A DNA stretch of 64,000 nucleotides from Setoptus koraiensis (taxonomy: Eukaryota; Animalia; Arthropoda). How positions within the stretch are numbered: the stretch's first letter is position 1; every line of letters begins with the position of its first letter. The translations under genes were made by a program, and so were the position numbers. A model generated the notes under the pieces. The model searched no databases. It had not been told where the DNA came from and was given only the letters and a program-made list of their open reading frames with translations. The DNA is taken from positions 17,670,001 to 17,734,000 of the forward strand of contig CM106585.1 in assembly GCA_048013815.1 (NCBI GenBank). The letters run 5' to 3'. Shown piece by piece: positions 47,834 to 64,000 of this stretch.

Positions 47834-48151
47834 GATACTGATATTGATAAATATGTTGATATCAAGACAATTTTACGTGTTCTCCCGTCCCCAGGCCTCA
47901 TTTCTTTTCCGGCTTTCAGGCTTCAATCTTTAACGCTTTGTTTTATTGGGTCGACTGTAGGATTGGTGTTGCTTGACTTGAGATCGCCCTTCTAACAAAT
48001 ACATCTAACTTGTGAGGATACAGGCATCTCCGAGCTAACAATCTAAGTTACACTTGTAACCTGACAACTTGTGAGTGACGTTTAATGTTAGGTGTTAAAT
48101 CTGTTGTCCGAGAACTGGGTTGTTGTAGCGAACTGGGCGTAGTTTCGATCT

Positions 48152-48266
48152 GGGTATTTTGGGTATTTTTGGGTAGAGTATAGTACCCTGATACCCGAAT
48201 AGGTATTCATAAGATGTAGAAATTTACGGTTTTCGAGTTACCTGAGGTACCGCACAGTGGGCGTTT
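48152..48266 (+). repeat. Partial third copy of the module left-end sequence (GGGTATTTTGGG...CAGTGGGCGTTT), cut by the gap
   Basis: Aligns colinearly with 62025-62139 and, more loosely, with ~50050-50170. Confidence 0.85.
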
Positions 48267-48766
48267 NNNNNNNNNNNNNNNNNNNNNNNNNNNNNNNNNN
48301 NNNNNNNNNNNNNNNNNNNNNNNNNNNNNNNNNNNNNNNNNNNNNNNNNNNNNNNNNNNNNNNNNNNNNNNNNNNNNNNNNNNNNNNNNNNNNNNNNNNN
48401 NNNNNNNNNNNNNNNNNNNNNNNNNNNNNNNNNNNNNNNNNNNNNNNNNNNNNNNNNNNNNNNNNNNNNNNNNNNNNNNNNNNNNNNNNNNNNNNNNNNN
48501 NNNNNNNNNNNNNNNNNNNNNNNNNNNNNNNNNNNNNNNNNNNNNNNNNNNNNNNNNNNNNNNNNNNNNNNNNNNNNNNNNNNNNNNNNNNNNNNNNNNN
48601 NNNNNNNNNNNNNNNNNNNNNNNNNNNNNNNNNNNNNNNNNNNNNNNNNNNNNNNNNNNNNNNNNNNNNNNNNNNNNNNNNNNNNNNNNNNNNNNNNNNN
48701 NNNNNNNNNNNNNNNNNNNNNNNNNNNNNNNNNNNNNNNNNNNNNNNNNNNNNNNNNNNNNNNNNN
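48267..48766. other. Assembly gap (500 N)
   Basis: Run of N. Confidence 1.
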
Positions 48767-48780
48767 TTTACTATTTGAGC

Positions 48781-49083
48781 ATGAACGGAGAAGACTTTCA
48801 AGGTAACACGACCAAGAGTGCACGAAAGTCACTAAAAACAAAAGCTGTTAAAACTGGACTTGGTCCAAGGAAAACTTCATCATCACTCGGTGTAAAATCT
48901 ACGCAGGAAACGAAAGGATTGGGCCCAAAATCTTTTAAAAGCCTTGCCGGCAAGAAGTCTGTCAAGAGTATCGTCGCCCCGAAATCTGTTAATAGCATCG
49001 TCGGCGCGATATCTGTTAATAGCATCATCGACCCGAAATCTGTCAAGAGCATCGTCGCCCCGAAATCTGTTAGAAGCCGATAA
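48781..49083 (+). CDS. Small Lys/Ser-rich basic protein with an ARKS motif and 9-aa repeats (KSVKSIVAP); histone-tail/H1-like; frame is open into the gap
   Basis: TTKSARKSLKTKAVK...; 27-bp tandem units at ~48957-49070; no stop between the gap and ATG 48781. Confidence 0.55.
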   Translation: MNGEDFQGNTTKSARKSLKTKAVKTGLGPRKTSSSLGVKSTQETKGLGPKSFKSLAGKKSVKSIVAPKSVNSIVGAISVNSIIDPKSVKSIVAPKSVRSR

Positions 49084-49457
49084 ATGATTATTTTCTCACT
49101 GTCAAAATAGGTCGAAATAGACGAGCCAAAACGCTGCTAAAACTGTGCCTCTCTATCGTTATCGTAGTGTGTATGTTGAATACAGTAGTACAATAGTGTG
49201 TCAATTGTGACAAATTATTGTTTACAACATTTACGACTGCAACTCTATAGAATATCTCGAAATTGATTATCAAAACTCATTCGACTCCAAAGTCGAGTAG
49301 GTGTTACAATCACCCGCGTTTCAAACATACTTTATATTTGTGTCTTAACGTTTTGTATGCATGGCTAGGTTAGAATAAAAAGTCTATAATGCAAAGTATA
49401 ATTATCATTGGAGCATTTTTTTGTGGTTAATTCAATCTCAATTAACGATTCAGTCAG

Positions 49458-49715
49458 TTAATTTTTGCAGATATGCAAAACGACCGATGATTGGTTGATC
49501 AGAAGTCTCTTTCTTGCATCTGCACTGGTTGTGAACGTTCCATCAAAATTACCAATCACGAGATTTTATCCGGAATTATACACTGTCAAGAGTATCGTTT
49601 CATTTCTATCTGGGACATCCGTTTCCAATTTTCTTTCCTCATTCAATTTTTGATAAACATTCTTATTGGGCAATACTGGTGACGATTTCGTGCTGTTGAG
49701 TTCATGCTTATTCAT
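49458..49715 (-). pseudogene. 85-codon frame with one internal TAA; C-terminal half resembles a NUMOD1/IENR1 helix-turn-helix
   Basis: My translation: MNKHELNS...ETILLTVYNSG*NLVIGNFDGTFTTSADARKRLLINQSSVVLHICKN; internal stop at 49566-49568. Confidence 0.3.
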
Positions 49716-50007
49716 TGGTATTATGGAGGGTATTCCGTCTTACGAACAAAGAACGAGCGAAACAAACAATGGACCTGGCAGATTTAGATTGTTGCGTCGT
49801 CTATTGTTTGTCCATGGCCACTTGTTCTATGTGCGATCGGCTAGAACAATCAATTATTTTTTTTTATATAAATAGGGCAATATGAATAGCATATTCTTTA
49901 CAAGAATATGCTATTTATATTGCCCCAATTTCTCTATGGCTTCTATAATGGCTTCTCAGGAGGAACTGTCTACAGTCCCATGACGCTGATTGGGTACAAT
50001 ATATTCT

Positions 50008-50995
50008 GGGGCTTCTCCGAAAAGACGACACACCACAATTTGAGTATTTCGGGTATTTATGGGTAGGGTATGGTGCCTTGATACCGGAATGGGTATTCCG
50101 GAAGTGCGGAAATTTCCCGTACCCGAGATACCCGAGATACCGCATACTGGGTATTTTAGGGTATTTGAGGGCATATTGACAGTACAGTCGGCCGTACTCA
50201 CCCGCACGGACATCGGGTAGGGTACTAAGGTCTTCGCATCGGTGGTAGATTGTACCTAGAAGCTAAAGCAAGAAAATAAAAGTGATCAAACTGAAGAGGC
50301 GTGACCAATGCGCACGGCACGAATTGAAACCGCGCATAATCAATTTAAGGATATATCCCCAATGTATATATCCCCCCATGTAACACCCCAGGCGAAGCCT
50401 GACGTCCTAGCCTCGACCAGGACTCCTACTAATAAAGGTTCAGGGCCAGGGTTCAAGGCAGTACAATAGCCCTTCCGTCTGCCATGCATCTTGGGCCCGG
50501 GCCGGAGAAGGGGTTCGGCCTCCAGTCGTCCACGCCTACGGCCTGCGGCCTCCGGCGGGACGACTGACGGCCACCTAACTGAAAAAGATTCTTCCCGTGG
50601 ACTGGGAGTCGAATGGGCGGGGCCCGTGATCGGATTTCTTCTATATAGGGTGTGAATTTGCTTCAGAGACCGTAACTAGTTGGTAGTACAGCCGAATAAC
50701 ATCAGTTTTAAAACCGGAAGTGTGACTTGCATATATTGTAGAATATCTCGCGAACGAGTTGATGTAGAAGATTTATCTAAACGCTATCACATAGATAGCA
50801 TGTGGATCTAGACAATCATACAAAAATTGAAGGTCTGAGGCCCCTCTGAGGCCCGAAAAATGCATTTTTCTATAACTCCGGAAGTAGAAATTTCCGCACT
50901 TCCGGACCACTTTATTTGTTCTTTGGGGCCCCTTCGGAGCCCATATGTGAAGTTTGAAGGAAATCGGAGTGTGTCGTCTTTTCGGAGAACACCCC
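50008..50995. mobile_element. Module 1: ~1-kb non-coding unit with nested inverted repeats (MITE- or HINE-like)
   Basis: Perfect 21-bp IR 50013-50033/50969-50989, perfect 20-bp inner IR 50097-50116/50887-50906, GC-rich hairpin core 50390-50572. No TSD identified. Confidence 0.7.
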
Positions 50996-51491
50996 AAACT
51001 TGTAGGACTATCATGTCCCAAAGCTAAATTAGCTCTCTTTTGCATAGATTGGTGTCACTCTAGGCATTGATCTGTGTCAATAGCATGCTTGACAAGTTAG
51101 TTTAGCATATTATACAAGCACTGGATGACATTCAAACATAATTATCACTCTTGAAGTGATACAAATGATCAATTAAGCCGGTCATCTGTCAATGGCAAGT
51201 TAATCAGAAGCACCTATTGGTAAAATTTGACTATTGACCAGCTTAATTTGCCGCCAATACTCATAGACTGATGTTCATGATTGACATTGTTGACTTTATT
51301 GAACTGATTCAATTGAACCTTGTTGTGTATACAGTTCTAAATAGTAATGTTGCACAAAATTTTGCGCCAGTTTTTCGCTCATGCTCGTGTGCAAACTTGA
51401 TGGACTATCATGTCCCAAAGCTAAATTAGCTCTCTTTTGCATAGATTGGTGTCAATCTAGGATTGATCTGTGTCAATAGCATGCTTGACAA
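50995..51491 (+). repeat. 397-bp satellite, ~1.25 units
   Basis: GGACTATCATGTCC at 51005 and 51402 (spacing 397); same unit as 54113-55412. Confidence 0.95.
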
Positions 51492-51650
51492 TAGGAATTT
51501 ACTGATGATGATCTGAATGAATTAGGACAGTCATGTCTCTGTTGGGAAACGGTCAAGGCTGAGATCTGTTTGGTTTTTATTTTATTCATATATCTTTGAT
51601 ATAGTGGTAACAGAAATGAGATTATAATCCTCATAATAGCAGATATATCG

Positions 51651-52244
51651 TCAGAATCGGAGATCCGGTAAATCACTCATACTAATTACTTTTGCGGCCC
51701 ATTTTGAATACTTGTCGATCGGTGCTGGTGTAGGAACACTACCTCCATCACTGTTCATCGTGTTCGCCAAGATGTCGATATCTATTATTTCTCGACTATT
51801 ATTGGGAAGCAGTTTAAATCGCTCGAATCCGAAATTATCAGCAAGTTTCCAATATGCTTTCTTTTTATATGGAGCATCCATGACTCGAAGAGGCGTCTTA
51901 TGGATGTCAAGTTGGAAGAAAAGTAATAGGACTAGCATATGAGCGGTTGCCGACGCTTTTTCGTCAGTGCTCCCAATCCCTGTCACGTTGCATCCCTCTC
52001 CTATGCCTTCGAAAATGAATTGAAGACGCCTGCCTACGAACCCCTTATCTGCGAATTCTCGCACCGTCAATCCTAATCCTCGACTTAAATAGTCTATCGT
52101 TTCCTTTGGAGTTCTCCTATCTTCAGGCCTACCGGTGACCTGTACTCTTGGCCATCTGTCTCCAGTATTTCTATCCATGATCTCCAGTCGGCGACTTCCG
52201 AAGAAATTTTCATCTGCTGGTGGAAGAGCTGCGTCGTCAGTCAT
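51651..52244 (-). CDS. 197-aa protein with a putative divergent double-stranded-RNA-binding domain (dsRBD)
   Basis: aa45-110 TPKETIDYLSRGLGL-TVREF-RLQFIFE-VTGIGSTDEKASATAHMLVLLL follows the alpha-beta-beta-beta-alpha dsRBD pattern (P..L..., G.G.sk..A...Aa..l..L). It lacks the KKxAK RNA-contact lysines. Confidence 0.45.
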   Translation of the reverse strand: MTDDAALPPADENFFGSRRLEIMDRNTGDRWPRVQVTGRPEDRRTPKETIDYLSRGLGLTVREFADKGFVGRRLQFIFEGIGEGCNVTGIGSTDEKASATAHMLVLLLFFQLDIHKTPLRVMDAPYKKKAYWKLADNFGFERFKLLPNNSREIIDIDILANTMNSDGGSVPTPAPIDKYSKWAAKVISMSDLPDLRF

Positions 52245-52338
52245 TATTACTTTTTTTATGGAGAAGTTTTATTTTATTAGCGCTTAATTTTAATTAAGGG
52301 CTTATGATGTAGTGTTGTTGGATCCTATAAATCACGCA

Positions 52339-52533
52339 TGAATATCCACGCACGGTATGATGGTGGATACTTAATTCTTGCATTTCATAGGATATTCACC
52401 AATTGTGCTATGGTGATTCACGCGCTGTGTGCTTGTGAATACTCCGACTTTGTATGCCAGTGAATATCCACGTACCGATTTATTTGTGGATATTCACAGT
52501 TTTCGATCTTGAGAGTCACGCGCTGTGTGCTTG
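52339..52533. repeat. Array of GTGAATATCCAC/GTGGATATTCAC motifs upstream of the dsRBD-like ORF, including a perfect 12-bp stem
   Basis: Stem 52460-52471/52486-52497 with a 14-nt loop; further partial copies; CACGCGCTGTGTGCTTG occurs twice. Confidence 0.8.
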
Positions 52534-52828
52534 CATACATTAGCACTAGCATAATCAGTGCTTAGTGAGTGTGTAGGCAGGAATGTGCTTGGGAGGTGGG
52601 AGGTGGGAGGTACACTCAAGCTTGAGATTCAAAAGTTCGTCCACCTCCCAAATACACATTTACTAGGGAGGTGGATTGAATCTTGAGTCTCGGGCTCATG
52701 TCTAGTTAGGAGGTGGACCGAAGCTATAACGAGAATTGAATTTTAAGTCCAGAGCTCATGCAGAGGTTGATGTATTGTGAGGAGGTGGATCGATGCTATA
52801 CACGATCTGTGCAAGTCTTATCAATTTT

Positions 52829-53095
52829 CTGTTTCTAGTATTGGCGCTATAGGCCATATTGTGGCACATGTGCCCATACATTATGTGCGATTTTCGAAAC
52901 TGTTCTGTTTCTAGTATTGGCGCTATAGGCAATTCTGGATCATGTTAGCTCATTCAATACATGTGATTTCTGATCACATGTGCCCATACATTATGTGCAA
53001 TTTTCGAAACTGTTCTGTTTCTAGTATTGGCGATATAGGCCATTTTGTGGCACATGTTCTTCCACAGTATGTTCAATTTTCGAAACTGTTCTCAC
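52829..53095. repeat. 76-bp minisatellite, 3 units (second has a 34-bp insert)
   Basis: CTGTTTCTAGTATTGGCG starts at 52829, 52905 and 53015. Confidence 0.85.
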
Positions 53096-53491
53096 CAGGA
53101 TAAATTCTTGAAAAACTTTCTAGAGACAGCTAGCACTTATCACTTCTTAATAAACTGTCCAAACCTCTAAGATTGTTCACTGGAAAAATTAAGCGCTCTT
53201 ATACTGGTATAATCAGTATAACTTGTTCTATATTTTTTCTATTTTATTTTATTTTACTTTATTTGTTTAGTGAGTGGGTTACAAAGGCAGTTATCGATAC
53301 ATATATGTGATTTGGTAACAGTTGTATGCGTATTAGACATTTTTCCGTTTGAGCATGAGAATAGCAACGTGACAAATTGGCTGTGAATTACAATTACACC
53401 GTTTAATTGTATCTCTTTCTATTTCTAGATTTTGGGGGAAGGGACAATGTTTCTGGTGAAACAAAAGGGTTTACCCCCCACTGCTCGGGAA

Positions 53492-53795
53492 GGACAGTAT
53501 TGTCCACAAAACTTCTACTTAGTGATTTGAAAATCGCGCCCATCTTCAAGTATTTACGGCGGTCCTAAGGACAGTGCTGTCCCAGATCATTCCGGTGATA
53601 ATTTATCGGCTCCGTCCACTCTCACGAGGACAGTCTTGTCCCAACAGACGAAGTTGAGGTAGTTTGAGTGGGACGGTTCTGTCCAGAAACATTCTAGCTC
53701 TTTTTTGGCGAGGCATATTGATTAATGTAAATAATATAATTGATAGTAATTCTGCTTATATATAATATCTGATTCATGCCGGGATACGGTTGTCC
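53492..53795. promoter_or_regulatory. Cluster of GGAC-N6-GTCC palindromes separated by unique spacers
   Basis: Exact sites at 53492, 53569, 53628, 53672; one-mismatch site at 53782. Function inferred only. Confidence 0.6.
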
Positions 53796-54112
53796 AACTT
53801 AAACTATCTAACTTTTTTCTAGAATAACTTCTGATCCCCACGGTAGGGGGCGCTCAAACTTTTCTTTCGAAGAATATGAGTCAAAGGTAATCTGTTGGCG
53901 TATATATTCAGTGATAATGATAATAAAGAGACTTATTCTGGATGATATGATGGTGGTGCTGACGATGAAGCGAATGATCGAACTTTTTCATCTCGCTTGT
54001 TTAATGATTTGGGACATGCATGTCCCGTCCATGACGCCATGCATTGCAAAGCGCCATTGAGGTAAGATAATTCGTGGATTGTTCCCGCTCCTTTGTTACG
54101 CCCTCTCATGAA

Positions 54113-55412
54113 GTCACTCTAGGCATTGATCTGTGTCAATAGCATGCTTGACAAGTTAGTTTAGCATATTATACAAGCACTGGATGACATTCAAACATAA
54201 TCATCACTCTTGAAGTGATACAAATGATCAATTAAGCCGGTCATCTGTCAATGGCAAGTTAATCAGAAGCACCTATTGGTAAAATTTGACTATTGACCAG
54301 CTTAATTTGCCGCCAATACTCATAGACTGATGTTCATGATTGACATTGTTGACTTTATTGAACTGATTCAATTGAACCTTGTTGTGTATACAGTTCTAAA
54401 TAGTAATGTTGCACAAAATTTTGCGCCAGTTTTTCGCTCATGCTCGTGTGCAAACTTGTAGGACTATCATGTCCCAAAGCTAAATTAGCTCTCTTTTGCA
54501 TAGATTGGTGTCACTCTAGGCATTGATCTGTGTCAATAGCATGCTTGACAAGTTAGTTTAGCATATTATACAAGCACTGGATGACATTCAAACATAATTA
54601 TCACTCTTGAAGTGATACAAATGATCAATTAAGCCGGTCATCTGTCAATGGCAAGTTAATCAGAAGCACCTATTGGTGAAAAAATACAATTGACCAGCTT
54701 AATTTGCCGCCAATACTCATAGACTGATGTTCATGATTGACATTGTTGACTTTATTGAACTGATTCAATTGAACCTTGTTGTGTATACAGTTCTAAATAG
54801 TAATGTTGCACAAAATTTTGCGCCAGTTTTTCGCTCATGCTCGTGTGCAAACTTGATGGACTATCATGTCCCAAAGCTAAATAAGCTCTCTTTTGCATAG
54901 ATTGGTGTCACTCTAGGCATTGATCTGTGTCAATAGCATGCTTGACAAGTTAGTTTAGCATATTATACAAGCACTGGATGACATTCAAACATAATTATCA
55001 CTCTTGAAGTGATACAAATGATCAATTAAGCCGGTCATCTGTCAATGGCAAGTCAATCAGAAGCACCTATTGGTAAAATTTGACTATTGACCAGCTTAAT
55101 TTGCCGCCAATACTCATAGACTGATGTTCATGATTGACATTGTTGACTTTATTGAACTGATTCAATTGAACCTTGTTGTGTATACAGTTCTAAATAGTAA
55201 TGTTGCACAAAATTTTGCGCCAGTTTTTCGCTCATGCTCGTGTGCAAACTTGTAGGACTAACATGTCCCAAAGCTAAATTAGCTCTCTTTTGCATAGATT
55301 GGTGTCACTCTAGGCATTGATCTGTGTCAATAGCATGCTTGACAAGTTAGTTTAGCATATTATACAAGCACTGGATGACATTCAAACATAATTATCACTC
55401 TTGAAGTGATAC
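54113..55412 (+). repeat. 397-bp satellite, ~3.3 near-identical units
   Basis: GGAC-N6-GTCC anchors at 54461, 54858 and 55255. Confidence 0.97.
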
Positions 55413-56612
55413 TTTCCGATCCAACAAGGATCCGGTATCCAACAAACCACCAGGTATATCTTCCTTGATTTCATAGACTTCTTTGTCCTGGAATTTTTCC
55501 ACTATTTTCCTCACGGATCTTTCGAATTTCTTTTTTAATATACAAAATTTTTCAGCCTTTTCTTGACAATCAATAGGGCATAATTCGGTACACTCATTTC
55601 CACACTCGGTGATCCGAGCAATATATTTTTCGATATCATTTATGAACGATAGATTCCCTTCAAATGGCTCGAAGAATTGTGGGGCGCCGAGATTTGTTAT
55701 ATCGATCGGACATCTCAGAAGACTGTTGAGAGTATCAATTTGATTGGTATGGTTGGATCCTGAGTTACAATAAACAATCAGTGTCTGGTCATTTGCCTCT
55801 GAGGGAGGATCTACGTCCATATTCGTCCCTTCGTTTGGACAAGACTGTCCTGAAGAATTGACGTCTGAACAATGTGAGCTAGGATCTGTGGGACCAGTTT
55901 GTCCTACGCCATCCTGTGACGGATGATCTCTGTAATTAGATTTATCTTGAGATGTTCCTTGTGTATCCTCATTTTGCTGCAACGGATGATCGACGTCTGA
56001 ACAATGTGAGCTTTCATCTGTGGGACCAGTTTGTCCTGCGCCATCCTGTGACGGATGATCTATGTAATTAGATTTATCTCGAGATGTTCCTTGTGTATCC
56101 TCATTTTGCTGCAACGGATGATCGACGTCTGAACAATGTGAGCTTTCATCTGTGGGACCAGTTTGTCCTGCGCCATCCTGTGACGGATGATCTATGTAAT
56201 TAGATTTATCTCGAGATGTTCCTTGTGTATCCTCATTTTGCTGCAACGGATGATCGACGTCTGAACAATGTGAGCTAGGATCTGTGGGACCAGTTTGTTC
56301 TACGACATCCTTAGTGGTTAAACGCTTTAATTGATCGAGAAAAGTTGCCATCATCGCATGTGCTTCTTCTATGGGGCCTGTACAATCATCATCCGGTTTT
56401 GGTGGTTCATACGGACGTATACTTCTTTCAGAATAAGTTAGCTCCTTATGCCTCTCTGAAATAATCTTGTTTTTAGAGTCGAAATTAAACAATTTCACTG
56501 AATAAACTATACGACCGTTACGTGAAATTTTTCCGTTGATGATTCCCGGCCAATATCCTTTAGCTGATCGCACCATAACTGGCCTATCTTTTTCTAAATA
56601 ATCGAGGCTCAT
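55395..56612 (-). CDS. 405-aa protein: N-terminal PWWP-like domain, 44-aa acidic repeats, Cys-containing C-terminal region; native C-terminus replaced by satellite-derived sequence
   Basis: From MSLDY: PVMVRSAKGYWPGII...YSVKLFN...SIRPYE...IEEAHAM matches the PWWP layout (VWaK..gypwWPa.I, y.V.FFg, l.pf, helix). The stop codon lies inside the satellite. Confidence 0.6.
   Translation of the reverse strand: MSLDYLEKDRPVMVRSAKGYWPGIINGKISRNGRIVYSVKLFNFDSKNKIISERHKELTYSERSIRPYEPPKPDDDCTGPIEEAHAMMATFLDQLKRLTTKDVVEQTGPTDPSSHCSDVDHPLQQNEDTQGTSRDKSNYIDHPSQDGAGQTGPTDESSHCSDVDHPLQQNEDTQGTSRDKSNYIDHPSQDGAGQTGPTDESSHCSDVDHPLQQNEDTQGTSQDKSNYRDHPSQDGVGQTGPTDPSSHCSDVNSSGQSCPNEGTNMDVDPPSEANDQTLIVYCNSGSNHTNQIDTLNSLLRCPIDITNLGAPQFFEPFEGNLSFINDIEKYIARITECGNECTELCPIDCQEKAEKFCILKKKFERSVRKIVEKFQDKEVYEIKEDIPGGLLDTGSLLDRKVSLQE
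55861..56300 (-). repeat. 132-bp (44-aa) coding tandem repeat, ~3.3 units
   Basis: GQTGPTD(E/P)SSHCSDVDHPLQQNEDTQGTS(R/Q)DKSNY(I/R)DHPSQDG(A/V); each unit carries a GGAC-N6-GTCC site (55891, 56023, 56155; 56287 has one mismatch). Confidence 0.95.
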
Positions 56613-56761
56613 TTTAAAAAATGAATAAATAAATAAATTTATGTTGATAATAAGAAACAATAGCGATAGTGTTACAAGCATACAGCATGCAGCATCTAAT
56701 CAGTTGAGATTGCTGTGTAATTCGCGCCCTTTATTTGAAAAAAAAGAAGGACCTTATGGTT

Positions 56762-56864
56762 CTTGCGACGGTTAACCTTTTGAGAGTCAATCGTTGCTGG
56801 GACTCGGTGGTCCTTGCGACGGTTAACCTTTTGAGAGTCAATCGTTGCTGGGACTAATTGGTCC
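56762..56864. repeat. 51-bp tandem duplication between divergent ORFs; each unit is a hairpin plus a GGAC-N6-GTCC site
   Basis: GCGACGGTTAACCTTTTGAGAGTCAATCGTTGC twice; sites at 56800 and 56851. Confidence 0.9.
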
Positions 56865-56970
56865 TACATACAATAGCAGACGAAAAATACACATTCCGTC
56901 ATTTGCGTGAGTGCGTAACTGCGTTATCTCTTATTATTCTTTTTTCTTTACATCTTTTACGAATAGCACA

Positions 56971-58064
56971 ATGGCAAACAAAGAGAACAAAGAAAACAAA
57001 CAAAAAAAACCCAGAACCTACATTAGAAATCCGTATGTTTCTGATGTAAAATTCTCTGTTCCAGTTCCAAATAAAAATATAACCCATTTAATCATTTTTG
57101 GTATCATCCTGCGATCAATTGGTACAAACAAGTAAGCCAAGAGTTGTGTGAAGACTACAATTGTCACATCTATCTAAATAGTGAAAATGGTCTCGGATCT
57201 GATATCATAGCCTGTATTTTTTTGTACGGTCAGTATGATTGCTGTCGGAAGAAGTCACAACAACAACCCAAATTTATTGGAAGAACAATACTTCAAGCCT
57301 TTTATTTGATGAGTGGCTCAGCAAATACTCATTGTTTTGGGGTCAATCAAAGAGAATACCTCAAATACAAAATACCACCAAGTTCCGATCAAACATTATC
57401 AGACATCCCATGGGAAGTCATTAGGACTCATTCCGATAACGAACGACCCGACAAAAACCATCATGAGAATAAGTTTTGTTTCGGGTCCGCCGACTATAAC
57501 TACTTCGATTTGAACGAAGATTTGAACGACTCAGAGACTAGCGCAATGGATAGTGAATTTGACATCTCAATCTATAAAAATCCTTGGATCGGTGATGGGG
57601 AGCCGCCGGATATTGTGGCTTTCCACCAATATAAAATAACTCATAAAGAATTACATCTTTTATCATCAAATGAATGTCTCAATGATATGATCATTGATTC
57701 CTATTTCCACCTCATTCAACAGACTAGGATGCAGGACAACAAAAGCGTGGATATACTTGTATCACCGACTACGTTCTGGCGAAAATTAGATCGACTCAAA
57801 TCCGACGAGGAAATTCAAGAGCTCACAAAGACAAATTATATTGGGGACGAATCCTTTCAGCTCTACCACCGTGTGTTCATCCCGATCATATTATCCGACA
57901 TGAAGCATTGGATTTTGGCTGTCGTGGATACGGAGAATCGTATTGTCACATTGTATGATAGCTCGAAAAGTGGCAGAAAGGACATTCTATCCAAGATCCA
58001 AACATATATAACAATGGATGCCAAACAACGACGAATTCTTTCACATCAGTGGCAATTGATGTGA
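56971..58064 (+). pseudogene. Ulp1/SENP (peptidase C48) SUMO-protease-like gene; frameshifted near 57075 and truncated before the catalytic Cys
   Basis: ITHKELHLLSSNECLNDMIIDSYFHLI, SPTTFW, VFIPII...KHWILAVVD...IVTLYDS (His at 57906, Asp at 57957), ending ...QWQLM* at the inversion junction with no QxNxxDCG. The ATG 56971 frame needs one extra A in the A5 run at 57073-57077 to join the 57075+ frame. Confidence 0.8.
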
Positions 58065-58411
58065 CAATACGATTCTCCGTATCCACGACAGCCAAAATCC
58101 AATGCTTCATGTCGGATAATATGATCGGGATGAACACACGGTGGTAGAGCTGAAAGGATTCGTCCCCAATATAATTTGTCTTTGTGAGCTCTTGAATTTC
58201 CTCGTCGGATTTGAGTCGATCTAATTTTCGCCAGAACGTAGTCGGTGATACAAGTATATCCACGCTTTTGTTGTCCTGCATCCTAGTCTGTTGAATGAGG
58301 TGGAAATAGGAATCAATGATCATATCATTGAGACATTCATTTGATGATAAAAGATGTAATTCTTTATGAGTTATTTTATATTGGTGGAAAGCCACAATAT
58401 CCGGCGGCTCC
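58059..58411 (-). repeat. Inverted copy of 57599-57951 (Ulp1 core)
   Basis: 353-bp reverse-complement match, no differences noticed; 107-bp spacer at 57952-58058. Confidence 0.95.
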
Positions 58412-59186
58412 AGGACAAACTGGTCCCACAGATGAAAGCTCACATTGTTCAGACGTCGATCATCCGTTGCAGCAAAATGAGGATACACAAGGAACATCTC
58501 GAGATAAATCTAATTACATAGATCATCCGTCACAGGATGGCGCAGGACAAACTGGTCCCACAGATGAAAGCTCACATTGTTCAGACGTCGATCATCCGTT
58601 GCAGCAAAATGAGGATACACAAGGAACATCTCAAGATAAATCTAATTACAGAGATCATCCGTCACAGGATGGCGTAGGACAAACTGGTCCCACAGATCCT
58701 AGCTCACATTGTTCAGACGTCAATTCTTCAGGACAGTCTTGTCCAAACGAAGGGACGAATATGGACGTAGATCCTCCCTCAGAGGCAAATGACCAGACAC
58801 TGATTGTTTATTGTAACTCAGGATCCAACCATACCAATCAAATTGATACTCTCAACAGTCTTCTGAGATGTCCGATCGATATAACAAATCTCGGCGCCCC
58901 ACAATTCTTCGAGCCATTTGAAGGGAATCTATCGTTCATAAATGATATCGAAAAATATATTGCTCGGATCACCGAGTGTGGAAATGAGTGTACCGAATTA
59001 TGCCCTATTGATTGTCAAGAAAAGGCTGAAAAATTTTGTATATTAAAAAAGAAATTCGAAAGATCCGTGAGGAAAATAGTGGAAAAATTCCAGGACAAAG
59101 AAGTCTATGAAATCAAGGAAGATATACCTGGTGGTTTGTTGGATACTTTTGACAAATTCAGAACATGTTGGGAACTGAGAAGATAA
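58411..59186 (+). pseudogene. Inverted, 5'-truncated copy of the PWWP-like gene (58411-59146 = reverse complement of 55435-56170) that keeps the probable native C-terminus ...LLDTFDKFRTCWELRR*
   Basis: Identical translated repeats and C-terminal region; PWWP part missing. Confidence 0.9.
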
Positions 59187-59227
59187 ATAAAAATTGAGTA
59201 TCATCCTTCCGCATTTAATCGTTGCAG

Positions 59228-59368
59228 GGACCAAGTGGTCCTGAGAATTCTACCAAGACAAGTCGAGAAAAACTAGGTAGTTATTTGTCCTAGACATCTT
59301 AGGACAGACTAGTCCTCAGTTATCTGTTGAGACTATCTAGTCCTCCAGAATCTGAGACGGATTAGTCC
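59228..59368. promoter_or_regulatory. Second cluster of GGAC-N6-GTCC palindromes
   Basis: Exact sites at 59228 and 59302; AGAC-N6-GTCC variants at 59330 and 59355. Confidence 0.55.
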
Positions 59369-59384
59369 TCAATTTAGCTAAGAG

Positions 59385-59638
59385 ATGCCTAGAGAAACAC
59401 CAGATGTTCATATTTTTGATAACATGATCCAAATTATCCGGAGTAGCCTGATTCATAAAAAATGATGGGAGTGCATATACTTTTTTTTTGCGCGTTTGGT
59501 TATCATGAATAGATAAAAATTAATTATCTCGTCGTTTAGCCATCCTGCGGGTTTGAGTCTTCTGATGTCTCTCACTGTGACTTGATAGTTTAGAACTTTT
59601 CGATGAGGACCGGCTGGGACTTCTTTGTCCCTGATCAA
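59385..59638 (-). pseudogene. Fragment of a SENP1-like Ulp1 domain (N-terminal part), frameshifted in an A9 run and truncated
   Basis: YQVTVRDIRRLKPAGWLNDEIINFYLFMI closely matches the SENP motif ITRKDIQTL..LNWLNDEIINFY. After a -1 shift at 59481-59489 it continues KVYALPSFFM...VIKNMNIW, then no catalytic residues. Confidence 0.75.
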
Positions 59639-59731
59639 ATTCCTTGAATATCGGTTTCAGATGATAAAAGGAGAATGATTCTTCAGATATTTTATCGCCA
59701 TATATAATTGGTGCAGCGTAGGGTGCTGTTG

Positions 59732-60463
59732 TTAGGCCATTAAAAATGCGTCTAAACAAGAATGAGTACAGGTTTCTTCTGCATTCTTTGAGCCTTTCAT
59801 GATATGACAAAATGTCAAAGAGTTCAACATTGGAACTCCATACATCTCCTCAAGCCACAAAGCTATGATTGATGCTTCTTCAGTTGTTATAGTCATGTCG
59901 CTATGACATGAGTAAACGGTTGCAATAGTTATGTTTGTGGACTGAACTAGAATCAATATAAAATGTCCTCTCATTTCGATCGGATGTATGTTTCCTGACC
60001 CGAGGAGTGGAAAAAATTTTCCGCTTTCCGTTGTTTCCGCTCCAATCTTCAGCGATCGAGAGAGTTTCGGGAAATATGATGCATCTCCCTCATTTTTGCC
60101 GAATTTTTCATTCAACTTTTCCCTCAGTGCTCCTATAAATCCATAGAAGTCTTGATCGGCAAGGCAACTTTTTGGGTAATTAGGCTCAAAAAAGCCCTTC
60201 TTCTTAAATTGTTCTTGCTGAACGAACACATGCGGTTCATTATGAGCCGCGTATGTGCCCTTTCCTCTTATGAGAGATTCTTCGTCGGTTTTTTTCTCGT
60301 TTATAATGATTGTCTCATCATTGGCATTTAATGTTAAATAATTAATGAACATAAAATAGAGGCGAAAAAATTTAAAATGATCCCCCATATAGGGGTTGAT
60401 ATCGTATTTTTCTTCTGCCATGGTATTATTTCTCAGTCGATATCGACTCTCTATGACAGTCAA
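59732..60463 (-). CDS. 243-aa ORF with a highly divergent C48/Ulp1-like (possibly inactive) protease fold
   Basis: IHPIEMRGHFILILVQSTNITIATVYSC resembles Ulp1 PI....HW.L.vvd......I..yDS. The catalytic Asp is not evident and the Cys segment is ambiguous between two frames. Same frame as 59453-59638. Confidence 0.45.
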   Translation of the reverse strand: MTVIESRYRLRNNTMAEEKYDINPYMGDHFKFFRLYFMFINYLTLNANDETIIINEKKTDEESLIRGKGTYAAHNEPHVFVQQEQFKKKGFFEPNYPKSCLADQDFYGFIGALREKLNEKFGKNEGDASYFPKLSRSLKIGAETTESGKFFPLLGSGNIHPIEMRGHFILILVQSTNITIATVYSCHSDMTITTEEASIIALWLEEMYGVPMLNSLTFCHIMKGSKNAEETCTHSCLDAFLMA

Positions 60464-60562
60464 TCGTAATATAACAGCTCAAAACTACTTTCCGCAATCA
60501 ATTTCTGAGGATCTAGATCAAGAGAGCTCGTGAACAGTATCTCTCTCTCCTTATCTCTCTTT

Positions 60563-60590
60563 ACTCGCTAGTTCAGGTGAACTAGCGAGT
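60563..60590. promoter_or_regulatory. Perfect 12-bp hairpin in the divergent intergenic region
   Basis: ACTCGCTAGTTC-AGGT-GAACTAGCGAGT; a GGAC-N6-GTCC site follows at 60671. Confidence 0.55.
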
Positions 60591-60904
60591 CAGCCGACGT
60601 TGTTCAGATCAGATGAACTGACACATAATGAGTGCCGTGCGCGAGGGGACTCTCTAGTTTTTTTTGATCAGGACACAGTAGTCCGCTAATGTGAAATTAT
60701 CTTGTTTTTTTTATTACATTATACGAGTATGGTCCTGTGTTGACGTTAGATATAGTTGTTCTTTATACATGTCGGTTGATCCGATCCTGAGTCGTACATC
60801 AATTAAGTACAATTAAGTTTCGCATTAGTCATCTTAGGCAATAACGAGAGTTAGAAAAAACACTACATTGTTACATTCACTATACCCAATCATATACAAA
60901 AGGA

Positions 60905-61732
60905 ATGGCGAGAACTAAAGACACCAGAGATAAAAATCTACGCAAGAGTGTAGGGAGTACGAGAATAGCCGACCGCACTTTGGGGGCTGCAAAATCAACT
61001 CCAGATGCGCCTCCCGCGGCCGCAAGAAGTACATCTAATACATCCATCATGCATGTTCAAGCCCAAGAGTCTGACCCCAAGACTCCAGGAAGTTCAAAAT
61101 CGAAAACTTCACAAGCTGTTACCGCAGGCACGGATGATCCGTCGAAGAGATCACGATCGCAACAGACCGTGCCTTATATTTTACAAATTGGAACTATATT
61201 TCTAGACACTTTGATGTCCCAGATGAACAAAATTCACCAGTATCATTGTGCTGAACAATTGGCGGGATGCAAGAGACAAGTTCTGTTCGGTAGTACAGAA
61301 GGCTGGTTTACGAAACCATCCCAAGAGCTTTGCCGACAATTCAGTTGTCATGTCTTCTTGGTATCAGAGTCCACACTAGCTGATGACATAGTCTTGGTTG
61401 CCCTATTTTATGGTAGCAAAACTATTGGTCGTTTTAACGATGTGAAATTGATTAAGGATCTGGACCATGTTATTTCACAAAAGTTCGTAATTTTCACACG
61501 GTCTACGTCAGTGAGGAAATTAGGCGACAAATTCATGCGAGAGATAGCAAATAAGATTCCATTTGGCTCACAACAGAACCCCGAAAGTCTATATGGTAGA
61601 TTCGTCCGGCCTATGATATATGCATCCAAGACATCAAATCAGCCCACTAGGAATAAAACAATGGCAGAAATGTTCGCACGTATCGAGACCAAGACTGAGA
61701 AGAGTCAAAGAAAAAAGTCCGTCCAAGAATGA
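60905..61732 (+). CDS. 275-aa protein with a histone H3-like N-terminal tail but no histone fold, plus an unassigned ~90-aa domain shared with the 57-kb Ulp1 protein
   Basis: MARTKDTRDKNLRKS...GAAKSTP: R2, T3, K4, T6 and K9 in register with H3; intact ATG-to-TGA ORF. Confidence 0.75.
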   Translation: MARTKDTRDKNLRKSVGSTRIADRTLGAAKSTPDAPPAAARSTSNTSIMHVQAQESDPKTPGSSKSKTSQAVTAGTDDPSKRSRSQQTVPYILQIGTIFLDTLMSQMNKIHQYHCAEQLAGCKRQVLFGSTEGWFTKPSQELCRQFSCHVFLVSESTLADDIVLVALFYGSKTIGRFNDVKLIKDLDHVISQKFVIFTRSTSVRKLGDKFMREIANKIPFGSQQNPESLYGRFVRPMIYASKTSNQPTRNKTMAEMFARIETKTEKSQRKKSVQE

Positions 61733-61975
61733 CAGGGATGAAGCGGAACGCGCAGAGGACAAGTAGGTCCCTGATCAATAATGCTCAAATTCCATACAAT
61801 ATGTTACAATTCTAATAAATATTCAATGAGAATTTATTGATAGATGAAACTGATAATCTTCTTCACTCTCTACTGGTGATTCATGAAACGATCGCTATTC
61901 GCCATCTATGATTCTAGCATCAGTAACAATTCTTTGAGCACCAAGATAACAGTGTGCCCATAGGATTGCTATTCA

Positions 61976-62970
61976 CCACGAAAAAGTTTTGGTTATAGTC
62001 CCGAAGAGCGCCACACTTTTTTCGGGGTATTTTGGGTATTTTTGGGTAGGGTATTGTACCCTGATACCGCGATGCGTATTCCGGAAGTGCGGAAATTCTT
62101 CGTTCCCGAGATAACCGAGGTACCGCTCAGTGGGCGTTTCACGGTACCCGACAGCCGCTTGGAGATTTGCGGGTAGTTTTTCGGGGAAATTTTTGGTACC
62201 TCATCAAGGTCGCATCCAATACAGCAAGGAATGGCAGAAATAGGCCTCAGCTTCGCTCAGCTTGTGATGGGTCTGAGAACTCGGCCTGCGGCCTCGTAAT
62301 CTGGAGGCCGTCACATCTCCGTCGTCGCTCCCGCGACGACTCCGTGCGACGGGAACCCTTCGGGTAGGGTTGATGAGCGCTTCGGGTATCGGGCTGCGCC
62401 CTCTACCCTCCGCTCACGTGACTGCAATCCATACCCTGTTAAAAGAGATGATCAGACTGCGAACTGTGAAGCCCAAGATTTCACAGCATCCCATCGAATG
62501 CGCAGGCTTCAGATTTAACAGTTCATTAATCAGCGTAATTCCGACCGATTGCGCAAGTATTGCTTCTGTCAGGTCGTCTGATGACGGCATTCCACTGAAC
62601 AAAGACCCGTTCGCTGAACTCGCTAAGATCATGCGCATAGAATAGCAAGCAAGAGGTGAAAACCAACAAAAACGGCCCTTATCAGGGCAACCCCACTTTT
62701 AACAACTTTCTCTTGGTTTTTCCCAGAGATCTCGAGAACCGCGCGTCCAACATGGCTGAAATTGATGGCGTTGTGCTCAGCATGCTTGAATCTACCAGTG
62801 TACCGAGTTTTGAGTCTGTATCTCAGAGTTTTATTAAAACCGGAACCGGAAGTTTCCGCACTTCCGGACCACTCAATTTGTACCAAGGGGGCCCTACGGA
62901 CCCTATGTGTGAAGTTTCATCTCAATAGAAGTGTGGCGCTCTTCGGGACTACACCCAAAGTTTTTAGTGG
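61976..62970. mobile_element. Module 2: ~1-kb non-coding unit homologous in architecture to module 1, same orientation
   Basis: Perfect 23-bp IR 61996-62018/62929-62951 (imperfectly extending to 61976/62970), 16-bp inner IR 62080-62095/62853-62868, GC-rich hairpin core 62240-62410. Confidence 0.7.
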
Positions 62971-63165
62971 ATAAGGTGATGAGCCATCCAATAGATCCGG
63001 CGAGGATCTATTCATGGTTGTTTATATATATGTTAAATTATATGTTAAAAGATATTTCTAATAGATATTTCTCTATATTTTGGCTGGATGGGTAAAATAT
63101 GGCATTCGACTTTCTTTTGTGGTGCTACTATCAGATAAACATCCGAGTCTGGCTCTACATCAACA

Positions 63166-64000
63166 ATTTAACTTTGAGACATGTTAGTCCTACAAGTTTG
63201 CACACGAGCATGAGCGAAAAACTGGCGCAAAATTTTGTGCAACATTACTATTTAGAACTGTATACACAACAAGGTTCAATTGAATCAGTTCAATAAAGTC
63301 AACAATGTCAATCATGAACATCAGTCTATGAGTATTGGCGGCAAATTAAGCTGGTCAATAGTCAAATTTTACCAATAGGTGCTTCTGATTAACTTGCCAT
63401 TGACAGATGACCGGCTTAATTGATCATTTGTATCACTTCAAGAGTGATAATTATGTTTGAATGTCATCCAGTGCTTGTATAATATGCTAAACTAACTTGT
63501 CAAGCATGCTATTGACACAGATCAATGCCTAGAGTGACACCAATCTATGCAAAAGAGAGCTAATTTAGCTTTGGGACATGATAGTCCATCAAGTTTGCAC
63601 ACGAGCATGAGCGAAAAACTGGCGCAAAATTTTGTGCAACATTACTATTCAGAACTGTATACACAACAAGGTCCAATTGAATCAGTTCAATAAAGTCAAC
63701 AATGTCAATCATGAACATCAGTCTATGAGTATTGGCGGCAAATTAAGCTGGTCAATAGTCAAATTTTACCAATAGGTGCTTCTGATTGACTTGCCATTGA
63801 CAGATGACCGGCTTAATTGATCATTTGTATCACTTCAAGAGTGATAATTATGTTTGAATGTCATCCAGTGCTTGTATAATATGCTAAACTAACTTGTCAA
63901 GCATGCTATTGACACAGATCAATGCATAGAGTGACACCAATCTATGCAAAAGAGAGCTAATTTAGCTTTGGGACATGATAGTCCATCAAGTTTGCACACG
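63166..64000 (-). repeat. 397-bp satellite in reverse orientation, at least 2.1 units, runs off the window
   Basis: Reverse complement of the 54113-55412 unit; anchors at 63177 (AGAC variant), 63574 and 63971. Confidence 0.97.

Follow-up and report, generated by a model that had tools for sequence, protein, structure and literature searches.

Background

The SUMO proteases of the Ulp/SENP type, among them yeast Ulp1 and the human SENPs, carry a C-terminal Peptidase_C48 domain behind a family-specific non-catalytic region, and in Ulp1 and the SENPs the N-terminal region, which is not conserved, directs the protease to its targets. Here we describe two genes of Setoptus koraiensis, gene 1 and gene 2, which lie in a stretch of 64,000 nucleotides (nt) of contig CM106585.1 (this whole stretch was analysed and is called the window) and share a piece of coding sequence that we refer to as the module. 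The layout of the putative family to which they belong is like that of the Ulp/SENP proteases, in that a C-terminal Peptidase_C48 domain stands behind the module. It differs from them in that the module is a conserved, folded-looking stretch of about 160 amino acids (aa), that neither Pfam nor PDB gave a match to it, and that it also stands alone, without a protease, in gene 2. Our analysis leads us to favour, tentatively, the view that the module is a docking or regulatory part, likely non-catalytic, of an Ulp1/C48-type protease family rather than a DNA reader.

Genes of this kind have been met in mobile elements. In those passages of PMC2836005 that deal with them, Ulp1 domains are reported in Ginger1 and Mutator transposases, the mobile elements in question being those of hydra, lancelet and plants. 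The present locus is like the Ginger1 and Mutator-like elements, as far as these passages describe them, in having a C48 protease gene within a repeat-bounded, element-like animal locus. In the portions of PMC5821449 that name it, DUF1985 is a domain of unknown function in the Arabidopsis "Ulp1 protease family protein (DUF1985)".

The two genes share a coding stretch

The two genes, the module in each of them and the two copies of the shared stretch from which the analysis started are located as follows.

57075..58064, plus strand: open frame of gene 1 from stop to stop, holding a module remnant, a linker and Peptidase_C48 (49% identity to the relative P0003, see below)
57102..57425, plus strand: module remnant in gene 1 (tblastn with P0003 and P0004, BLASTP)
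57120..57392, plus strand: first copy of the shared stretch, the module core in gene 1 (translation, BLASTP, shuffles)
60905..61732, plus strand: gene 2, an intact open reading frame (ORF) of 275 codons with an ATG (ORF list; a chance frame of this length is expected 1e-3 times per window)
61139..61609, plus strand: the whole module of gene 2, some 157 aa (matched with residues 15-186 of P0003, and with P0004 over 173 aa)
61304..61576, plus strand: second copy of the shared stretch, the module core in gene 2 (translation, BLASTP, shuffles)

BLASTP aligned the 91-aa translations of 57120-57392 and 61304-61576 without a gap, with 28/91 residues identical and 42/91 positive (55.1 bits, E 1e-16), and comparison of the whole ORFs gave a match of 103 aa (29/103 identical, E 3e-12). 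The ungapped BLOSUM62 score of 126 was reached by none of 200,000 shuffles, the maximum of which was 21. In the core 16/37 residues are identical, as counted by hand on the BLASTP alignment, and the pattern W-x4-SQELC-x4-CH was found in both copies. The translations, the gapless identity, the core count and the pattern were thus confirmed as an earlier sequence-only reading of this DNA had given them. The extent of about 90 aa which that reading had proposed holds for the module core; as a full length it is too short, for the relatives described below show about 160 aa.

Over the 102 aligned codons the two copies are identical at 38% of first, 52% of second and 26.5% of third positions, and the expectation from composition is 26.1%. 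Since the third positions do not differ from this expectation and the second positions reach 52%, the synonymous sites are apparently saturated and the likeness has been kept at the protein level. To judge from these codons, the two copies are old coding sequences under selection rather than a recent DNA copy. No further copy of the module was found in the window when both ORFs were compared with the whole of it by tblastn. A hidden Markov model (HMM) of four module sequences, run against all 892 window ORFs of at least 40 aa, likewise detected the two copies only (E 4e-76 and 2e-60), with the next best at 0.35.

Relatives and architecture of the family

A profile of the module was run by hmmsearch against 1,835,955,588 representative proteins. 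Four proteins were obtained at E up to 1e-3, two of which are true relatives: P0003 (462 aa, E 6.4e-38), known from one contig of 2996 nt, and P0004 (246 aa, E 1.0e-19), known from one contig of 1183 nt, each of them a nameless single-member cluster. The other two were repeat proteins aligned over 31 and 47 residues, and they were discarded as composition artefacts. P0003 opens with a basic N-terminus, continues with the module and closes with a Peptidase_C48 domain (PF02902, residues 321-451, E 5.3e-20) that is complete and includes QQGNNYDCG; P0004, as predicted, has the basic N-terminus and the module without C48.

BLASTP matched P0003 to the gene 1 frame with 165/335 residues identical (49%, E 6e-113). 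Residues 15-186 of P0003 correspond to residues 79-235 of gene 2 with 26% identity over 172 aa (E 5e-14), and P0004 matches gene 2 with 23% identity over 173 aa (E 9e-15). Because both relatives align to gene 2 over 172 or 173 aa, the module is about 160 aa long rather than 91. Within the module, identity is 58% between gene 1 and P0003, 40% between gene 1 and P0004 and 34% between P0003 and P0004, and gene 2 is the outlier, with 23-26% identity to the other three alike.

Several traits are common to all four members. P0003 opens with MARKSK, P0004 with MARRSR, gene 2 with MARTKD and the stretch upstream of gene 1, at the ATG 56971, with MANKEN, each an MA[RN] and then basic residues, and in each a basic KKP/KR patch directly precedes the module. 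Fifteen residues of the module are invariant in the four sequences (W, C, H, S, D, Y, G, K, I, Q, F, K, P, Q and R); the sole invariant Cys lies 6 residues ahead of the sole invariant His, and the C-terminal third contains no invariant Cys. The isoelectric point (pI) of the module is 8.8-9.5 in the three complete copies, which makes it mildly basic.

The simplest reading of these sequences is that the four members form one small gene family, in which a basic head is followed by the module and then by C48 or by none. As the members share the N-terminus, the basic patch and the order of the module, gene 1 and gene 2 are most simply paralogues of one family; the proposal that one module had been fused to two different chromatin effectors is not supported, since the shared start, patch and module are what paralogues would have. 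By sequence, the family appears to be a tiny and fast-evolving group of Ulp1/C48-type protease paralogues defined by the module of about 160 residues. As only two relatives were recovered among 1.84 billion representative proteins, the module would be a lineage-specific invention of limited reach rather than a principle of wider validity.

Gene 2, a paralogue without protease

Gene 2 begins with MARTKDTRDKNLRKS (60905-60960). Its 78-aa basic, low-complexity head, which starts with MARTK, is followed by the module and by a basic C-terminal tail of pI 10.3. No protease domain was found in gene 2 by the Pfam scan. Gene 2 is therefore most simply read as a divergent, protease-less paralogue, the head of which has probably grown to 78 low-complexity residues.

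The sequence-only reading had called one of the two proteins an H3 mimic. A profile of 21 H3 sequences, drawn from 38 IMG/VR loci, aligned residues 1-18 of gene 2 to H3 positions 1-14 with an E of 0.05 in a search space of one sequence. Since the relatives begin with MARKSK and MARRSR, the H3-like head may be a family trait that drifted near the H3-like pattern and not a purpose-built mimic. The idea that gene 2 is itself a divergent histone H3 or has a histone fold was rejected: hmmsearch --max gave E 0.04-0.18 in a search space of one sequence, and hhalign gave P 0.41 with two sequences and P 0.2, in another register, with four.

The module is conserved both with C48 (complete in P0003, truncated in gene 1) and without it (in gene 2 and, as predicted, in P0004). 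As a docking or regulatory part it would carry the C48 domain of those members that have one to nuclear targets, much as the N-terminal region does in Ulp1 and the SENPs. The product of gene 2 would bind at these docking sites as well but cleave nothing, and would serve as a competitor or as an adaptor with basic tails of its own.

Gene 1 is broken in the window

The frame of gene 1 is interrupted at both ends, and three further features are listed with it.

56971..57071, plus strand: probable original start of gene 1, in a frame that differs from that of the module (residues 18-32 match residues 22-35 of P0003)
58059..58411, minus strand: inverted copy of 57599-57951, 100% identical (repeat comparison)
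59456..59656, minus strand: fragment of the N-terminal half of a further (third) C48-like domain (E 0.019 in a search of the 892 ORFs with an HMM of the C48 domains of gene 1 and P0003)

Homology of the gene 1 frame to P0003 and P0004 starts at 57102, so that the N-terminal third of the module is missing. The piece after the ATG at 56971 matches residues 22-35 of P0003 at an equal distance from the start (E 0.001). The first break thus falls between 57070 and 57101, where the frame changes and the counterpart of P0003 residues 36-72 is absent. The C48 domain of gene 1 (PF02902, nt 57675-58034, E 4.2e-08) scores 33.7 bits against a curated cut-off of 20.7 and covers profile positions 2-145 of 217. 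At the second break the match to P0003 stops at residue 402 of the latter (58058), and the counterpart of the QQGNNYDCG part is absent. Since the inverted duplicate begins at 58059, the region of the active-site Gln and Cys is missing from gene 1.

Two adjoining inverted duplications, both 100% identical (57599-57951 with 58059-58411, and 55435-56170 with 58411-59146), make up a chimeric segment at 58059-59146, which cuts gene 1 short and holds a second copy of the 3' part of a minus-strand ORF of 428 codons. These duplications may be a recent fold-back rearrangement, perhaps confined to one haplotype, or an artefact of the assembly. Contigs of four public runs, two of which look like one data set filed twice, were aligned to the window. 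The 107-nt centre is spanned (57922-58088) by one contig of run X2, the depth of which is roughly half that on either side. The contigs of all four runs break their alignment at 57092/57102, where 9 places are skipped, at the frame break of gene 1, and the window assembly and the reads may differ at 57092-57102. Both module regions are covered by run contigs without differences. The C48-like fragment at 59456-59656 on the minus strand is followed by a frame shift and, beyond it, by the boundary of the duplication at 59146.

One might take the likeness of the two genes for a relic of a duplicated and now functionless sequence, as gene 1, broken at both ends in the window, would suggest. We regard this as highly improbable, because the codon-position pattern is that of long selection on the protein, gene 2 keeps an open frame of 275 codons, and P0003 is complete at 462 aa with the active-site region of its C48 domain intact.

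Searches for a known family

No Pfam family matched the module at E up to 10 in the two 125-aa stretches, gene 2, P0004 or the N-terminal half of P0003, in a scan whose HMMER filters discard most matches above an E of about 0.1. Sequence and profile searches of PDB with the module returned nothing relevant. The sequence-only reading, which did not recognise the family, is borne out on this point.

Word-indexed homologue searches yielded nothing for gene 2 (0/859 candidates), for the two-copy profile against longer proteins (0/726) or for the C48 part of gene 1 (0/61). Pattern matches were confirmed in 0/84 and 0/63 cases among IMG/VR viral contigs and in 0/130 among contigs of the JGI metagenomes, there was no tblastn match in a phage collection, and PF02902 was found in 0/4 giant-virus records scanned for a broader C48 profile. 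The ESM Atlas gave Rap1 Myb (0.76) and DUF1985 (0.77), both at noise level. DUF1985 (PF09331) was the nearest named cluster for residues 15-200 of P0003, with a score within the range of shuffled proteins, and it had no Pfam match in the module at E up to 10; we treat it as a lead only.

A zinc site had been proposed at C-x4-CH. The second Cys of this motif is Val in P0004, which leaves one Cys and one His invariant in the four sequences, and a zinc site is therefore unlikely.

Predicted structure of the module

Two AlphaFold monomer models were made, as the sequence-only reading had suggested. Model 1 covers 125 aa and was built from 2 sequences (pLDDT 44.7, pTM 0.40), and model 2 covers 169 aa and was built from 4 (pLDDT 49.2, pTM 0.45). 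A core of a helix, three strands and a helix is common to both; in model 2 it is extended by a long helix at the N-terminus and by two short strands. The models were compared with known structures by Foldseek and by VIA-align (48,161 chains for model 2). Both are poor and they disagree on the fold, one pointing to clan CE and the other to GNAT.

For model 2 the best structural neighbour is the clan-CE fold (NEDP1/SENP8, SENP1, XopD and adenain). Of its top 17 VIA-align rows, 15 are SUMO or NEDD8 proteases, adenain-type proteases or CE deubiquitinases, the best being a NEDD8 protease (Z 5.6, root-mean-square deviation (rmsd) 3.2 over 89 aa, model residues 40-151), and 15 CE-type rows stand among the 46 Foldseek matches listed. 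In a BFVD fold search with model 2 the best E was 0.074, and 2 of the 50 matches listed were named cysteine or SUMO proteases. These results suggest a refinement of the docking or regulatory role, namely that the module arose by internal duplication as a degenerate, catalytically dead copy of a clan-CE protease, which would bind SUMO or another ubiquitin-like protein without cleaving it. We consider it possible, though doubtful. Model 2 found the clan of the neighbouring domain although its query columns held no C48 residue, and by our estimate the CE proteases are a small share of the solved chains, so that coincidence is unlikely for a random alpha/beta model. Model 2 is, however, of low confidence with no Z above 5.6, the result is not repeated with model 1, and there is no sequence signal from Pfam, hhalign or column shuffles. 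The best-aligned ranges of the targets (49-155 of the NEDD8 protease and 485-595 of SENP1) end before their catalytic Cys, and the module has no long helix after the aligned range. The catalytic triad of clan CE runs in the order His-Asp-Cys. Such a triad could not be placed in the module, as its invariant Cys precedes its invariant His, and in lacking the triad the module is unlike the clan-CE proteases.

If gene 2 were such a copy, it would be a free-standing pseudo-protease, a dead SUMO-protease fold with an H3-like MARTK tail in a palindrome-rich, repeat-bounded locus, and might serve, alongside an active protease paralogue, as an adaptor or a decoy at SUMO-modified chromatin. We think this rather unlikely.

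Model 1 suggested a different fold. At least 25 of the 50 VIA matches listed for it are GNAT-type acetyltransferases, Hat1 among them, with the GNAT didomain of AprA as the best (Z 5.8, rmsd 3.8, 106 aa). A GNAT-like acyltransferase fold has only a very slight chance of being right, for model 1 is the poorer and shorter of the two, GNAT is a very common fold in the library searched, model 2 does not reproduce it, no Pfam acetyltransferase matched at E up to 10, and a conserved acetyl-CoA loop motif was not seen by eye in the four sequences.

The docking or regulatory role of the module, and with it the lead to clan CE, has to be set against a number of results. Both models are poor by their pLDDT, and all structural scores fall within the range that the tools state as noise (Z below 8, best Foldseek E 0.21). 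In model 1 the GNAT-type chains predominate as described, CE proteases appear at VIA ranks 39 and 43 only, and the Foldseek matches listed are unrelated, with no CE row among them. PF02902 itself was not found in the module at E up to 10 in either 125-aa stretch, gene 2, P0004 or the N-terminal half of P0003. Alignment of the module with the C48 domains of its own family gave an hhalign P of 0.51, with profiles of only 4 and 2 sequences and hence low power. In local alignment 103 of the 150 column shuffles did as well, and in global alignment 42 did. Finally, only gene 2 can be active in the window, because gene 1 is broken there.

The GGAC-N6-GTCC palindrome

The palindrome GGAC-N6-GTCC occurs at 27 sites in the window against 0.37 expected, all of them within 51005-63984. 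It is associated in part with the following repeats.

54113..55412, no strand assigned: left array of a 397-nt repeat (repeat comparison)
56757..56858, no strand assigned: two 51-nt tandem repeats with one GGAC-N6-GTCC each, lying between gene 1 and the minus-strand ORF of 428 codons, the starts of which diverge (repeat and motif scan)
63165..64000, no strand assigned: right array of the 397-nt repeat, inverted with respect to the left one and running off the window (repeat comparison)

There is one site per 397-nt unit. The sites upstream of gene 1, at 56800 and 56851, are those of the 51-nt repeats, and gene 2 is flanked by sites at 60671 (234 nt upstream) and 61757 (25 nt after the stop). 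Three more lie inside a 132-nt coding repeat, where they encode G-Q-T-G-P.

The sequence-only reading had suggested the module as a sequence-specific DNA-binding domain that reads this palindrome. The strong enrichment, the sites in the intergenic stretches before both genes and the mildly basic character of the module (pI 8.8-9.5) all agree with it, and DNA is a cofactor of adenain, a CE protease. Yet none of the sequence or fold searches (Pfam, PDB, Foldseek, VIA) returned a DNA-binding family or fold, the proposed zinc ligands are not conserved, the enrichment is partly a matter of repeat copying, with three of the palindromes in a coding repeat, and the sole link between module and palindrome is their occurrence in one locus. 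We thus regard DNA reading as improbable.

Setting of the locus

The locus spans about 7.75 kb (55412-63165) and is bounded by the inverted arrays of the 397-nt repeat. In the Ginger1 and Mutator-like elements, according to the same passages on them, the Ulp1 domain is part of the transposase; the present locus is unlike them in that a Pfam scan of 139 different ORFs of the window turned up no transposase domain, and in that its genes look low-copy. In the four runs the contig depth over gene 1 and gene 2 is 4-6 times lower than that over 58630-59109 and 60230-60709. Variants of these two segments, about 8% diverged, occur in all four runs, and from the depth and the variants together it appears that the segments are repeated elsewhere in the genome. 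Elsewhere in the window the Pfam scan found Sushi, F5/8 type C and BTB domains in ORFs, and the window has the look of animal DNA.

The 428-codon ORF (55395-56699, minus strand) contains three tandem coding repeats of 132 nt at 55857-56311 and matches no Pfam family at E up to 5. A likeness of its start to PWWP, noticed by eye, was supported neither by Pfam at E up to 5 nor by PDB. Another minus-strand ORF, of 248 codons (59732-60478), shows no likeness to P0003, the module HMM or the C48 HMM. Each 397-nt unit carries an ORF (63096-63293 on the plus strand, with copies at 55152-55304, 54755-54907, 54358-54510 and 51299-51451 on the minus strand) which forms the next-best group for the module HMM (E 0.7-1.9). 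It is identical to residues 78-105 of P0003 at 10/28 positions (E 2.9). Both likenesses are at chance level, the copies counting as one match.

Further to the left, 48001-50000 has a low G+C content of 0.289, with 27-nt tandem repeats at 48922-49077 and, at 48203-49136, long open frames on both strands that match no Pfam family. The segments 50044-51005 and 62027-62967, each of which precedes an array of the 397-nt repeat, show a likeness of 75-82% when read in direct orientation, although their arrays are mutually inverted. It may be that two related units have been joined to form the repeat-bounded locus.

Significance

That Ulp1-type protease genes occur in element-like animal loci was already known; what is new here is a delimited accessory module and a paralogue that lacks the protease. 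The module gives a concrete handle on how the Ulp1-type proteases of such loci find their targets, whether the partner is SUMO, chromatin proteins or DNA. As it exists both with and without the protease, one can also ask whether the protease-less paralogue counteracts the protease.

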